From: Euglena gracilis
Lineage: Eukaryota
Assembly (NCBI GenBank): GCA_039621445.1
Contig: CP154954.1
Span: 20,942,642-21,006,641 of the forward strand
Length of the DNA: 64,000 bases
Direction: 5' to 3'
The notes under the pieces are model-generated. The model worked only from the letters and a program-made list of their open reading frames with translations. It was not told where the DNA came from and did not search any database. The translations under genes were made by a program, and so were the position numbers. Shown one piece after another: positions 12,401 through 57,400 of the stretch (the first letter of the stretch is position 1; every line of letters starts with the position of its first letter).

Positions 12401-15400
12401 AGAAAGCTCAAAAGTCGATGATTTGTTGATGTGACCCCTTTCGGCAAACCTATTTAGGAACAGGGGGTAAGCGGAACGCTGCTGGAGGAGTGCTCCTCTC
12501 CCGATGTCCCTGCCTCCGAGGGGGCTGTGTCGCCGCCGCCGCCGCGGGCAGAGTCCCGAAGGGGCCCCACAGCCGAGAGCGCTGACGTCGCGCGGGGCCC
12601 ACAGCGCGGGGCGGAGGTGCGGGCCCTGGCGGACCAACTGCAGGCGGCCGAACAGCTGTTGGCGGCCGTCCGCCTCGAGAACGAGCACCTGGAGGCCCTG
12701 CAGGTGGAGCTGCGGGAGGGGCTCTCCCGGCCAGGTCGTCATGTCCTCCCATGGGATCGCAGGAGGAAGCCGGCTCTCGTGCATGCAGACCGACCCATAC
12801 GAGTGCAAACCTCATGCTGTCATGTCATGGGCATTGACGAATATGGGACTTTGAGGCCTCCCCAGAAGGTTGTCATGGGCTTGCACTCGCCAATTTGTCA
12901 GGTTCAGCTTCTTTGAGGGGGAAGGGGCTTGGTGACAATGTTAGCCCTAGGCATCAACCGTTGCCACGGTGGTCTGGGACCAAGTCCGGACCGAAGCCCT
13001 CCACCACCGCCAGCGAGCCGTTCAGCTCCAACACGAGAACCAATGCCTCACGCCCACTCCCGGCTTGCCCTCTGTGGCCCTTCCCTTCTCCGATCTTGCT
13101 GAATGGTTCCTTCGTGGGGCAAGGATCCTGTTCTTGAAGGCGATTGAAATGCTTCTTCCCTGAGGTGTTACCTCCCCCCCCTTGTCGTTGACACGGCGTG
13201 TCGTTGACACACCCCCCGTGTCAACGACATTTTCCTGGAACACTACCTATTGAATCACAGTGACATTAACATGGCATGTCGTTGACACCCCCCCCCCCGT
13301 GTCAACGGCACTCTCCTGGAACATTGGCGTGTCAACGACAAGGGGGGGGAGGTACTCTTTCTGGTTGTATGGTTGTCCTGGGTTCCCCAGGAGTCAACAA
13401 CTCATCAGCACATACGCAATGACACCGCCGTCTCTTTTCCCTTCCTTCCTCCTGACCACTCAAGACATCCAAATTTTCAACAGCGGCCAAACCCTCCCCA
13501 AAGGTTACTATTTTCTTGCGTCATGGGCCTGTTTTCCTTCATCCCTGAAGGAAATTTGCCTGCAATTTGTTTTTAACACACCTAGCAAGACACACCTGAG
13601 ATAGCTAACTGTATTGCACATAAGCATTACACCCAGTGATGGAACCCCCTGAGAATTCTCCAACTGCACTGGTGACGGTCATGTGTTGGAAACCACACCA
13701 AAGCATCTGTCAAGCACCACCACCCCGGTCTTTACCCATCTTTTAAAAGGTCATCTCCCCCGACAGGCTTGCTTTTCTTGTTTTGTGTTTAATTAAGAGA
13801 TTGGAAACTTTGACAAATTGGAATTTCTGAAGCCTGATTTGACAAGATATTGTTTATTTTTTCATCCAAGTGCCTTTAAGTTCAACAATGGACCCCAAAA
13901 TAAGGCTTATTTTTTCTTTTTGGCGTGCGGTGCCGGATTTTTTTTGCAGTCAGATATCCCGTTTTCCTAAGCACCCCTCGGTCCTTATCCCAGTCGCCAC
14001 CTGGTCTGAAACCAGATGACTTCCAAGGGGATTGGATGGTTCATTAAGGATGGCAGGTTTGGGCAGAAGTTGGTCACGAGTTGCACTTGGGGAGACATTT
14101 GGGTTCTCCGGGTCCTCCATGCCCAGCCCGCTCTGCCCAGCCCTCCCCCCAAACGGGCACAGGCAGGGGTGCCGGGGACAGAAGTGCAGTCCCTGGTGGC
14201 GGAGGCGGAGGGCTTGCGTAGCGCCGTGGCCACGCAGCAGCAACGGTACGCCACACTGGCCAGGCAGGGGCGGGGCCGGGGAATGCCTGCCTGAACGAGG
14301 GAGCCGTGCAGGCAAGAAAGGTTGGCTGCTGCGGATTTGTGTGATCTGTAAATTTGCATTTTTGGTAATTTTTTGTACGCATTATTGTTTTTGTGCAAAA
14401 ATACAGGTTGTTTTCCATTGGAGGCCTCACCCCCAGGCGGGGTTTTTGGGTGGGGTTTGCTGCGCCTCTCACCCCCCGGGCCCTCCCGGCCGTGCCTGCC
14501 ACCGGCCCAGGAGAAGGAGCAGCTGGCGGCGGCCACCGCGGAGCAGGAGGACCGCGTGGCGCAGCTGGCGGCCTCCACCGCCGCGCTGCAGGCCCGCTGG
14601 GACGCCGCCCGCGGGGACAGTGAGGCCACGGCACGGGACCTGCGGGCCTGGCGGGGGCCGTGTGTGTGGGTGTGGGGATTTGGGTGTGGGTGTGGGTGTG
14701 GTGCGCCTGGAACCACCAGCTCCCTTTTCCATCCAGCTCAGGCTTCTTTTTAAGTCAGAAGACCCCCCCCCCCCCTGGGGCGGGGGGGGGTGGGGGGGTG
14801 GGTCCAGGCCGGACCCCCCCCCCCCCCCGGGGGGGGGTCCCATGCCGGAGGTGCCGGGTATACCTTTTCGGCGCGAAGCGCCGAAAATTTTTGAAAATTG
14901 TGTTTAACGGGCCCGATCTTGGGGGGGTCCCCCCCCCGGGGGGGGGCCCGCGCCACCCTGGGTGGGTGGGGGGGACCCCCCCTCCCTCCCCCGGGGGTCT
15001 TAAAAAGAAGCCTGATCCAGCTCCCCCCCCACACTGCCCTCCATCCGTCGGGAAGAGCTGCGGCAGGCCCAGGATGCTCTTCGGCGGCGGAGCTCGGTGG
15101 AAGACGTGGCGGCCAGGCTGGCGGTTCATATTTGTCGGGTGGTCTGGAGGTGGCACCGTTGACTCCCCCCACAGTTGCCATGGAAGTGGGCCCTCAAAGG
15201 AAGCTCTGGTGGCGTTTGGTCGATTCGTGGGCAACCAAACCGACGCACCTCTTGGTTTTTGGACCCACCACCTCTCCGTTGCAGTGCAAAAGCTCACGAA
15301 GGCAGGGGGCCCAAATGGGGAGGTCTGGTGGTGGTGTTGAATATTTTCTCAAAATGGCTGGAACAAGGATTCATCGACTGTCATTTGTCTCTCCCGCCTG

Positions 15401-54400: not shown

Positions 54401-57400
54401 TCCCCTGCTCACAAGTAAGGGGCACCATGGCTGACATTGTTGGTTATGGTGAACAGAGAGTGACTCCTTGCTCGTGCATTTTTTTTGGGTCCAAAATGCC
54501 TTCATTTCAGCTGTTTTTGGTGATTTTGGTATAATTTTGGGCTTATTGTTGGAATTTTTTCTAAGTCTTTTTTCCTTTAGGAATGTCACAAACTCACCGC
54601 ATTTTTTTGCGCATTTTTGCGCATTTTTTCGCCGTCCAGTGCATTCCCCCCCCCCCTGCTTAACAGTCCAATTTGCCATGTTGAAAAGATCGAGTTTGGC
54701 TTTGCCGTTATTGCTGTATGGTTTGAGGAACAATTGACATCGATATCAATCCAAATCACCAATGAATTTGAAGGGCAGGGCGGGGGAGTGAATTGCAGCC
54801 AGATGAAATTAGACAACATTGTGGAATCACGGCGCATGAGAGTATTTCATGCCACTCCTTGCCTGCCAATAAACACCAGAGAAAGCGAAATGGTATTTCC
54901 GTATCAAAATAAACAGTAGAGCAGGGTTTTTTTTTATTTTAGTTTTGGACCACGAAGGTGGCGGGTACGAAGGTGGTGGGTGGGTCTGGCTGAGCACCCC
55001 CCCCCAGGGGTCCCCACAGGGTGTGGTATATTTTTCGGCGCCAAAGGCGCCAAATTTTTTGGAAAATGTGGTATTTTTAGCTTCTTTCGCGTTTTTTTAT
55101 GTTTTTTGGCCATTTTCAGGGAAAGTGAGTGGGTCCTCCAGCCCCCCCCCCCCCGGGGGGGGGGCCCAGGGGGTGGGTGGGTGGGCGGGGACCCCTCCCC
55201 CGTGGTCTAAAAAAACCCCTGCAGTAGAGCCGTCATCTAAGAGAAAGACGGTCGGTGATGAAAATGAAGTTTGTTTGCGACGAGGCTGATGTTCCACAAA
55301 CCACTGTGTTGCACAGACTTGAACGGTCTGCCTTCGAAAAACAACACAGAGGATGTTCAATTCAAACAATCCAGGCAGGAAAAATTCACTGAATGATCGA
55401 TGGCCATAGCAGTATTGAAGTTTCCAATTGCATGTTGAAGTCTTTTATCATCCTGTGGAAACCGAAGCACTGTCATTTTTTTTTACAACTCCCTGCCGAG
55501 CTGTCAATGTGCAAAAAGCGGATCACCGAGAGCAGCATTTGCTCTTGTCGGGGGGCTCTAAAACGAATGAAGGGTCATATATTTGGCATTTTCCTTCAGG
55601 ACAATAATCTGTGGTTGGTCAAGGGCAGATGAGGTTCACACCCCCCCCACCCTGCAGGTCAATGCGCTGCGGCAGACTCTGTTCAGCCGCATCACTTTCC
55701 TCTTCCGAGCCCATGCCCCTTTGCGATCCCTTCTCGCCACCACCCCGCCATCGGTTTGAGCCGCAATTCCCCCCCCCCCAAATCATTGCCAGCAGCATTC
55801 CTTTTGATATGACTCCCGCTCCACCTTCGGCTGGGTCACCGGGGGAAGAGTTGCCAGAAGGAATCTGACGACGCAGAAGGGCGGCGGGGGGGGGGAGTGG
55901 AAATATATATTATATATATATTATATATAATAACATATATAATAATATATAATAACATATAATACATAATAATAATATATAATAATATATAATAATATAT
56001 ATATATATATTATATATATTATGTATATTTTATTTTATTGTGACCTGTGCCGGTGGGGGCTGTTCTCCGGCGGGCCAAAGGGGCGTGCCGCGACAAGGCG
56101 AAGCTCGACGCCCACGCCCCGCTCATCCACGCCGCGAAGGGCATCGCGGTGTGGGACGACGGCCCCGCGCTGGCCGCCTTCCCCATCCGACCTGGGCGAA
56201 CCCCCCGAATCCCCACCCCATCATCACCCATCGCCCGTCCCCATCAGTTTTCTTTTAACTCAGAAGACCCCCCCCCCCCCGAGGGGAGGTGGGGGGGGGG
56301 GAGGGGGGGGGGGAAGGAGGGTGGGGGGGGGAGGCCGGGGACAGACCCCCCGTCCCGGGCGGCCAGGGTTTGGGTGTCGGCGCGAAGCATCAAAACTTTT
56401 CTTTGGGATATGCCCTCAGACGGCCCGATTTTTGGGGTCCCGCGCCCTGGGGGGTCCCATCTTGGGCTGGGTGGGTGGAGGGACCCCTCCCCCTCGGGCG
56501 AAAAGAAACCCGATCCCCTGAGCAGAAAAGCAGGCGGGATGCCATTCCACTGTGGGACCGCAACGGCGATCGATACGGGACATTGTTTCCCCCCCAGGAA
56601 CTGGCCTGGACTCGAATGGGCCAAAAATGAAAGGCCATACAGAGAACACGTCTACACCTTTTCTGACGTTGGTGGATGGGCGGTCCACCGATGCCAGAAA
56701 TCCTGCTTTCCCAATCTCTTTGCCCCCCCCCCCCGCCCCGCCCCCCGCGGGCCTTCGTCCGGCCAGCAGTACCCCAATGCAGTGGTAGTTCGCACCGATG
56801 AGGCCGACCTGGACCCGGCCTACGGACAGCTGGAGCAGGTAGTGCCCGCCTCCTTCCCCCTCCCCCCCATCCCTCTCTTTCCCCTCCCCCTCCCTTGACG
56901 CTTGGTCCCCTTCCCGTAGGCCAAGCCTCTAAAGCCATATGCTGATGTGTCATATGCGCATCCCAGATGAAGTTTCCCCGACAAAGCGGGGCCCTAAGTG
57001 TTGCGTGCCAGGATGGAGATAGTGTCGAACTTGCCGAAGTGTTTGTTCAGTTGGCCCAGGAGGCACATTGAACAAAATCGGCATTGTTACAATCTCCGCT
57101 GCTGAAGGCGACCAAGTTTTGACCTAAGGGTTCACAGTGCCCTTCTGCGGTCCGCTAGCAGGGCTAGCTAGTGGAAAAAAATTTCCCCAGTGACCGGCAG
57201 AATTTTTGTTGACATAAAACGCCCGTTTTTTTTTCAATTTTCGGATTTTCTTTGGAACAAAATCAGCAAAAAAGCACATTAAATTCCCCATCCCTTCGGT
57301 CCACAGCGCCGGAGGAATTGCTTTTTTTTCGTCGTTCTGGTAACTTGTGAAAAATGGCCAGGTGGGACTCCTCAGGGTCCTTTAGCAGCAGCTCCATGAT

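Follow-up and report, generated by a model that had tools for sequence, protein, structure and literature searches.

The 64-kb stretch of contig CP154954.1 of Euglena gracilis considered here (the window, to which all copy counts refer) raises the question of what the short elements with CAG...CTG ends are that lie between the exons of its genes, most of them flanked by a direct repeat of eight base pairs. A preliminary description proposed that they may be excised from the pre-mRNA as introns within introns. I argue here that they are probably hAT-like MITEs (miniature transposons with terminal inverted repeats) residing in introns, of a kind long proposed as the source of the nonconventional introns of euglenids, and that they would leave the mRNA passively, along with the host intron.

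Seven elements had been described before, five of them with perfect target-site duplications (TSDs) and two with duplications matching at seven of eight positions. When the eight nucleotides before the first CAG are compared with the eight nucleotides past the last base, all five perfect duplications prove identical at 8/8 positions, and both imperfect ones (22868-23152 and 43083-43462) match at 7/8. The ends read CAG...CTG in six of the seven elements, which by construction yields N3-CAG...CTG-N5, the exception being 23362-23637, whose right end is CCG. With two additional copies, one of them outside the range covered before, the elements and their terminal inverted repeats (TIRs) are as follows, none having an assigned strand:

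14739..15014, putative MITE of family F1; TSD ATCCAGCT at 14731-14738 and 15015-15022, 8/8; TIR 16/16, beginning CAGGCTTCTTTTTAAG
27687..27893, second F1 copy, 207 nt; TIR 15/15; no TSD, flanks matching at 1/8
22868..23152, putative MITE of family F2, beginning CAGGGTTTTTTT; TSD TTGGGGGG / TTGGGGGC, 7/8, G-rich
23362..23637, putative MITE of family F2 with degenerate right end (CCG for CTG); TSD GCCCCGTT, 8/8; TIR degenerate
54922..55221, putative MITE, F2 copy; TSD CAGTAGAG at 54914-54921 and 55222-55229, 8/8
472..735, further F2 copy, outside the range covered before; TSD AACGTGGC, 8/8
45505..46231, putative MITE F3; TIR beginning CAGGGCAGAACGGGAA, 16/16; TSD CGCTTGGG, 8/8
54009..54658, putative MITE F4, beginning CAGGGGGGGGGGGAA; TIR 15/15; TSD CTTAACAG, 8/8
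43083..43462, candidate MITE F5, beginning CAGGGTT; TSD ACCCGCCC / GCCCGCCC, 7/8, C-rich

The flanks of these nine TIR-defined elements thus match at 8/8 positions in six, at 7/8 in two and at 1/8 in one. Counted from the tips, unbroken TIR identity extends over 7 nt in 43083-43462, and over 5 nt in the elements at 22868 and 54922, followed there by a T-run with one slip. The interior of the F3 element contains 34-nt G/C-rich tandem repeats.

Could repeats and inverted ends of this kind arise by chance in G/C-rich sequence of low complexity? I scanned the window for TIRs matching at 10 or more of 12 positions and bordered by perfect direct repeats k nt long, applying a low-complexity filter and excluding the array at 40.6-43.08 kb. 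The scan returned 52 matches for k = 4, and 5, 4, 2, 4, 0 and 0 matches for k = 5, 6, 7, 8, 9 and 10, respectively; matches starting with CAG make up 4/4 at k = 8 and are absent at k = 4-7, 9 and 10. One of the k = 8 matches is the additional copy 472-735, and the filter removes the element at 54009, as its TIR tip is a G-run. In 12 block-wise first-order Markov resamples of matched composition, the k = 8 scan gave no match in 11 and one match in the remaining one, versus four in the real sequence. Perfect 8-mers beside TIRs of 10-16 nt, at this length only, and the similarity within families make chance a practically negligible explanation, and on the length-specific scan and the resamples it was rejected for the five 8/8 elements. 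In its favour, the duplications of the elements at 22868 and 43083 are homopolymer-rich and a 7/8 match lies at background level: under a loose criterion (CAG...CTG, a stem of at least 7 pairs with G-U allowed, flanks matching at 7/8 or better) seven real cases compare with 0, 6, 2, 1, 0 and 2 in six offset controls, and as these controls reach up to 6, a 7/8 flank match by itself is not above chance. The element 22868-23152 is supported despite its imperfect duplication, as it is similar to the other F2 copies (piecewise 69-96% to those at 472, 23362 and 54922). The weakest member is 43083-43462, the only one to which chance could still apply.

At least four TIR types had been claimed, and I count five (F1 to F5), all of which open with CAGG and close with CCTG. 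F1 comprises 14739-15014, 27687-27893 and a degenerate remnant near 56244-56511, F2 has four copies (472-735, 22868-23152, 23362-23637 and 54922-55221), and the two families have internal sequence in common. A further candidate, 60856-62117, was not counted, its tip being imperfect (CAG...TTG) and its duplication G-rich. By their structure the elements are most likely MITEs, that is non-autonomous DNA transposons, of hAT-like type: TSDs of 8 bp, short TIRs opening with CAGG(G/C), no coding capacity and a length of 207-727 bp. The tips of hAT elements follow the pattern YARNG, as in the ends of maize Ac/Ds; set against it, F2 to F5 open with CAGGG, and F1 opens with CAGGC, agreeing at four of five positions.

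The three nucleotides before and the five after the element (N3 and N5) differ among all four F2 copies. As these spacers change from copy to copy within a family, the duplications were made locally at each insertion, as expected from a staggered DNA cut. This bears on the alternative that the elements are not DNA transposons but nonconventional introns, re-inserted from excised circles by reverse splicing or reverse transcription. According to work cited in PMC11282704, nonconventional introns come off as circles of full length, and the tips of the elements equal the consensus of such introns (PMC11170887), but a moved intron would keep its old N3 and N5, whereas here both differ per copy and duplicate the local target exactly. 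As the copies moreover lie in non-coding DNA, one of them upstream of a gene, I consider this route very improbable.

The next step concerns the relation of these ends to splicing. According to Nomura et al., nonconventional introns obey the code 5'-N3CDG-/-CH'GN5-6/R, with a donor spacer of strictly 3 nt and an acceptor spacer that is optimal at 5 nt (PMC12501133), and the consensus in E. gracilis is CCAGG at positions +3 to +7 and CCTG at -9 to -6 (PMC11170887). The CAGG...CCTG tips of all five types coincide with this consensus. Since the spacers of 3 and 5 nt add up to the TSD of 8 bp, a cut at these positions would take out the element together with exactly one of the two duplicated sequences, whichever way the element is oriented.

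Every element had been credited with the paired-end architecture N3-CAG...CTG-N5, a claim that stands in part. Both genes in the window are transcribed from the + strand as sense strand, and here the purine required after N5 is present in four of the seven elements (14739, 22868, 45505 and 54922). The element at 54009 has a pyrimidine after N5 and a purine after N6 only, and two fail the code: 43083 has a pyrimidine after both N5 and N6 on the + strand, and 23362 lacks CDG/CH'G complementarity on both strands owing to an A-C mismatch in the motif. In 14739 and 45505 a G comes after N5 whichever strand is read. In the minimum free energy (MFE) fold the first C is paired to the last G in five of the seven listed elements, the exceptions being 22868 and 23362. 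In a post hoc count over few sites, position 6 of the TSD is G in 7/9 CAG-type elements and position 3 is C in 5/9, nnCnnGnn being found in 4. Under the N3/N5 rule, the base at position 6 would open the intron and also the exon that follows it. The possibility that the elements are introns splitting exons was rejected, as their removal with one TSD gives no convincing coding frame in 9/9 cases and their flanks are non-coding.

That the elements are nested in introns was claimed for all seven, and six do lie between predicted exons; the element 43083-43462 lies upstream of NBS1, about 1.8 kb from its start codon, and adjoins an (ATACT)n array. Three of the listed copies fall in a predicted gene for a coiled-coil protein:

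3046-35754, + strand, predicted coiled-coil gene, very large (about 33 kb), with some 41 short exons, each of roughly 90-190 nt

Its 41 candidate exons were chosen by eye from a list of composition scores for coiled-coil-like translation on the + strand, from which simple-repeat and non-coiled-coil rows had been dropped. No Pfam family was found above threshold for this gene, and 10 exon-bearing open reading frames (ORFs) give only sub-threshold coiled-coil matches. Many of its introns contain microsatellites of the types (TG)n, (ACAC)n, (CACG)n and (TGC)n. Between the predicted exons I searched for in-frame GT-AG introns, or for N3-CDG...CH'G-N5/6 followed by a purine; an initial wide enumeration was too permissive and was narrowed. 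Nine in-frame candidates of the nonconventional type, with stems of 6-12 pairs, join the coiled-coil frames cleanly:

4426-6425, 10390-10903, 12729-12981, 14258-14503, 14645-15056, 16159-16348, 21418-23848, 25396-26014 and 30572-31049, + strand, predicted nonconventional introns with in-frame joins

A frame test proved uninformative for these introns, as shifts of the spacer slide the same stems, and displaced-window controls were used instead. At exon borders there are 5 stems of at least 10 pairs that start with the C.G motif, versus 0-2 in eleven displaced-window controls. Judged from the nine in-frame candidates and this excess of long stems at predicted exon borders, the genome carries Euglena-type nonconventional introns. 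Two of the candidates would be hosts of the elements:

14645..15056, + strand, predicted host intron of the F1 copy 14739-15014; nonconventional, 412 nt, CTG...CGG, stem of 8 pairs, 3 of them G-U, in-frame join
21418..23848, + strand, predicted host intron of the F2 copies at 22868 and 23362; nonconventional, CGG...CCG, 10-bp stem, N5, 2431 nt, in-frame join

The first of these surrounds a copy that sits between the predicted exons 14505-14648 and 15043-15132, and CTG-CGG does not figure among the combinations assayed in section 11 of PMC12501133. CGG-CCG introns, the type of the second, were spliceable in the assay published there. The other F1 copy, 27687-27893, sits between the predicted exons 27450-27569 and 27995-28114.

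The second gene had been identified as that of nibrin, NBS1, correctly so: its exon 1 matches residues 1-50 of human nibrin (E 6.1e-6, the best of 3 matches). The parts of the gene that matter here are:

45235..45402, + strand, NBS1 exon 1, from ATG to the donor CAG/GTACGG
45403..49138, + strand, NBS1 intron 1, GT...AG, 3736 nt, with the frame kept into the next exon
49139-49226, + strand, NBS1 exon 2; the only PDB match of its ORF is nibrin residues 63-87, E 0.11
49227-50198, + strand, NBS1 intron 2, GT...AG, frame kept
52619..55227, + strand, predicted NBS1 intron containing the F4 element and the F2 copy at 54922, GC...AG, in frame

The F3 copy 45505-46231 begins 102 nt inside intron 1. The exons around 52619-55227 are presumably those of NBS1, by a resemblance to nibrin that I assume. 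Neither Pfam nor PDB gave a match for the two ORFs flanking this predicted intron, a PDB sequence search with the ORFs 50111-50407 and 52448-52738 found no nibrin match, and a search for homologous proteins with two NBS1 exon pieces gave no match at E <= 0.001 and no transcript-derived protein of the same organism. The hosts had been said to include GT-AG introns of NBS1. This is correct for 45505 (intron 1), but the hosts of 14739, 22868 and 23362 look nonconventional, and that of 54009 and 54922 fits GC-AG best.

With the hosts at hand, the proposal of nested introns can be weighed. It holds that the nonconventional machinery excises the elements by themselves, cutting 3 nt ahead of CAG and 5 nt beyond CTG and leaving one TSD, before or independently of the removal of the host. 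Four of seven elements follow N3-CAG..CTG-N5/R on the transcribed strand and one more does so with N6, and the tips pair in five of seven MFE folds, but two of seven fail the code (the mismatch of 23362, the missing purine of 43083) and the tips of 22868 are unpaired. Nonconventional introns that were knocked in were spliced at a foreign site (PMC12501133), and 59 'overlapping' intron pairs have been reported in E. gracilis (PMC11170887). In an amplicon study conventional introns are reported to be removed before the nonconventional ones, which are spliced late and post-transcriptionally (PMC6221363). Nested excision inside the conventional introns of NBS1 is therefore unneeded, and probably rare. 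It is more plausible for copies inside nonconventional hosts, as late splicing would leave host and guest in the same RNA, and hosts of this type seem to surround the three listed copies of the coiled-coil gene. Excision of an intronic copy would, however, leave the mRNA unchanged, hence nothing selects for it, and the question of nested introns is accordingly of smaller weight. Altogether I regard nested excision as possible but doubtful.

The one place where nested excision could matter is the F2 copy 54922-55221. The AG of the predicted intron 52619-55227 falls inside the right TSD copy of this element, and its insertion has probably duplicated the likely 3' splice site of the host intron (..CAGTAG/AG, within CAGTAGAG). 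Splicing to the upstream copy of this site would bring the element into the mRNA; for a nonconventional cut to give back the normal product in that case, the exon upstream would have to end in G, as the predicted exon does.

That nonconventional introns derive from MITEs was proposed in 2014, at a time when no transposon was known in euglenids (PMC3935182), and the hypothesis has been taken up since (PMC11282704), while the origin of these introns was still called unclear in 2025 (PMC12501133). A recently gained nonconventional intron in gapC of E. agilis, present in one strain, bears eight-nucleotide direct repeats (PMC4770533), and 84.4% of the introns of E. agilis are 'slidable' owing to direct repeats (PMC12501133). 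The reading of the elements as hAT-like MITEs would connect with this as follows. MITEs would have landed in the non-coding DNA of a genome that has Euglena-type nonconventional introns in its genes; of the seven copies listed, six are found inside introns and one upstream of a gene. Their ends would pair as CAG/CTG, and with a TSD of 8 = 3 + 5 nt every copy whose TSD has a purine as its sixth base would reproduce N3-CDG...CH'G-N5/R in either orientation. The copies seen here would be those members, located outside exons, of the element type from which nonconventional introns arose. They would leave the mRNA passively, together with the host intron, and separate excision may occur, though it is not required.

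Several observations weigh against this reading, and I gather them here. Within the window F3, F4 and F5 are represented by one copy each, and the F1 copy 27687-27893 lacks a TSD (flanks 1/8). The target consensus of hAT elements is nTnnnnAn, and both of its positions fit in only one of eight TSDs (CTTAACAG). No transposase was found, the 10 longest ORFs of the window yielding 0 Pfam families, and the superfamily is therefore deduced from structure. Elements with 8-bp TSDs in E. gracilis have in fact been assigned to Merlin, with two families described (PMC8101967), so that the MITEs could belong to this superfamily, or to another one with 8-bp TSDs, instead of hAT. Merlin elements are characterised by a conserved terminal 5'-GG and a TSD of 8-9 bp (PMC8101967); the length of the TSD fits, but all five types here start with CA before GG. 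The CAGGG tips on the other hand agree with the hAT pattern, and membership of Merlin or a similar superfamily seems unlikely.

Further points on the same side of the balance concern the introns. For the coiled-coil gene I selected the exons myself, by eye and on the basis of a composition score, and these models are predictions. The nine predicted nonconventional introns are without TSDs, their flanks matching at 1, 1, 2, 3, 3, 4, 1, 6 and 3 of 8 positions, and within the window they show no similarity to F1-F5; missing TSDs would be expected if these introns are old, as those halves of the duplication that lie in the intron can drift freely. The same introns also contain MITE-like families whose tips are different and which do not follow the code. 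As far as this window goes, the step from MITE families to real nonconventional introns is hypothetical.

The other repeats of the window are described for their own sake. A MITE-like repeat, R1, occurs at 948-1339, 11917-12238, 13708-13975 and 20838-21225, with copies of about 330-400 nt that are 68-79% alike, three of the four in introns of the coiled-coil gene; its ends are inverted over about 23 nt, with a C-run followed by TTGTCTAAG, possibly with TA flanks, and the tips are not CAG/CTG. R2 has three copies (11368-11662, 31594-31929 and 15644-15923), all inside introns of the coiled-coil gene, two of which are 93.5% alike, with inverted ends of a C-run and TATGTCCAATGACC. A palindromic 17-nt module, TTCGGCGCGAAGCGCCG (with at most 1 mismatch), is found at 1189, 11513, 12151, 14867, 27781 and 31727, within F1, R1 and R2, the ends of which are unrelated; these 6 matches compare with 0.01 expected, and 6/6 are on the + strand, which points either to a module common to the families or to an orientation bias relative to transcription. 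A dispersed repeat, R3, whose copies are 74-86% alike, lies at 4698-4991 (coiled-coil gene intron), 47390-47902 (NBS1 intron 1), 136-280 and 40448-40598. Near-perfect palindromes occur in introns at 5021-5101 (81 nt, 86% self-complementary) and 19648-19767 (120 nt, 84%). Between both genes, a tandem array of the pentamer ATACT extends over 2.45 kb (40614-43067, about 489 copies, 89% matches); parts of it are palindromic, the unit changing strand there. Scans of the window against Rfam and for tRNAs gave no match. A metagenome scan with the 16-nt F1 tip found 117 stretches and gave, among the 80 loci listed, a single match per locus and no paired ends; this was read as chance and not used.

How do the elements compare with known systems? 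Most closely they resemble the euglenid nonconventional introns themselves (PMC12501133, PMC11170887): these have CAG(G)...(C)CTG ends, spacings of 3 nt and 5 nt between cut and stem, which here equal the TSD, a purine as first retained base, as in 4/7 copies here, and lengths of tens to thousands of nucleotides. In contrast to such introns, the copies described here interrupt no coding sequence, keep perfect TSDs and form repeat families, and they are known from DNA sequence alone. Introners in Micromonas, Aureococcus and dinoflagellates (PMC11282704) are likewise DNA transposons with TIRs and TSDs, whose insertion makes a removable unit and whose TSD gives part of the splice signal, but introner copies are spliceosomal introns of genes, whereas the elements here match the non-spliceosomal code of Euglena; moreover, no F1-F5 copy interrupts an exon within the 64 kb examined. 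With twintrons and stwintrons (Euglena plastid; fungal, PMC9024468) the proposed arrangement has in common an excisable unit within another intron; a true inner intron must however go before the outer one splices, and no such dependence is suggested here except for 54922-55221. The Merlin elements of E. gracilis (PMC8101967) agree in the 8-bp TSD and the euglenid genome, and differ in their termini, 5'-GG as opposed to CAGG. The reading as hAT MITEs, finally, has a counterpart in Ds-like elements of the maize Ac/Ds system, which also have an 8-bp TSD and short CAGGG TIRs, are small and non-coding, and lie in or near genes. What sets the elements here apart is that no transposase or autonomous partner is seen, that the target consensus fits in 1/8, and that the interiors are rich in G/C homopolymers.

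The preliminary description also suggested that the diversity of the TIRs could explain why the stems of the introns share only the terminal triplet. The stems of the nine predicted nonconventional introns are mutually unrelated, and the TIR types of the MITEs are consistent with such an explanation. Beyond this, I tentatively raise the possibility that nonconventional splicing is an undoing, at the level of RNA, of insertions of this transposon type: by measuring 3 and 5 nt from the CAGG/CCTG stem, it could remove every member of these families, whatever the transcript, without a scar, from an exon or as a nested intron, in either orientation, and the families would be a living source of introns. 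In the searchable literature, supplements excepted (where sliding-distance data are possible), no paper was found that names these families, their superfamily, or the identity of 3 + 5 = 8 with the TSD.

Should this possibility prove true, the families seen here would supply the nonconventional introns, which are the majority of introns in Euglena. The symmetrical pyrimidine/purine consensus at both junctions and the very high share of 'slidable' introns would then represent worn TSDs, and the G at TSD position 6 (7/9) would reflect a preference for targets in which the purine needed is already present. Concrete families with intact TSDs make the origin of euglenid nonconventional introns and the mechanism of their removal directly testable.

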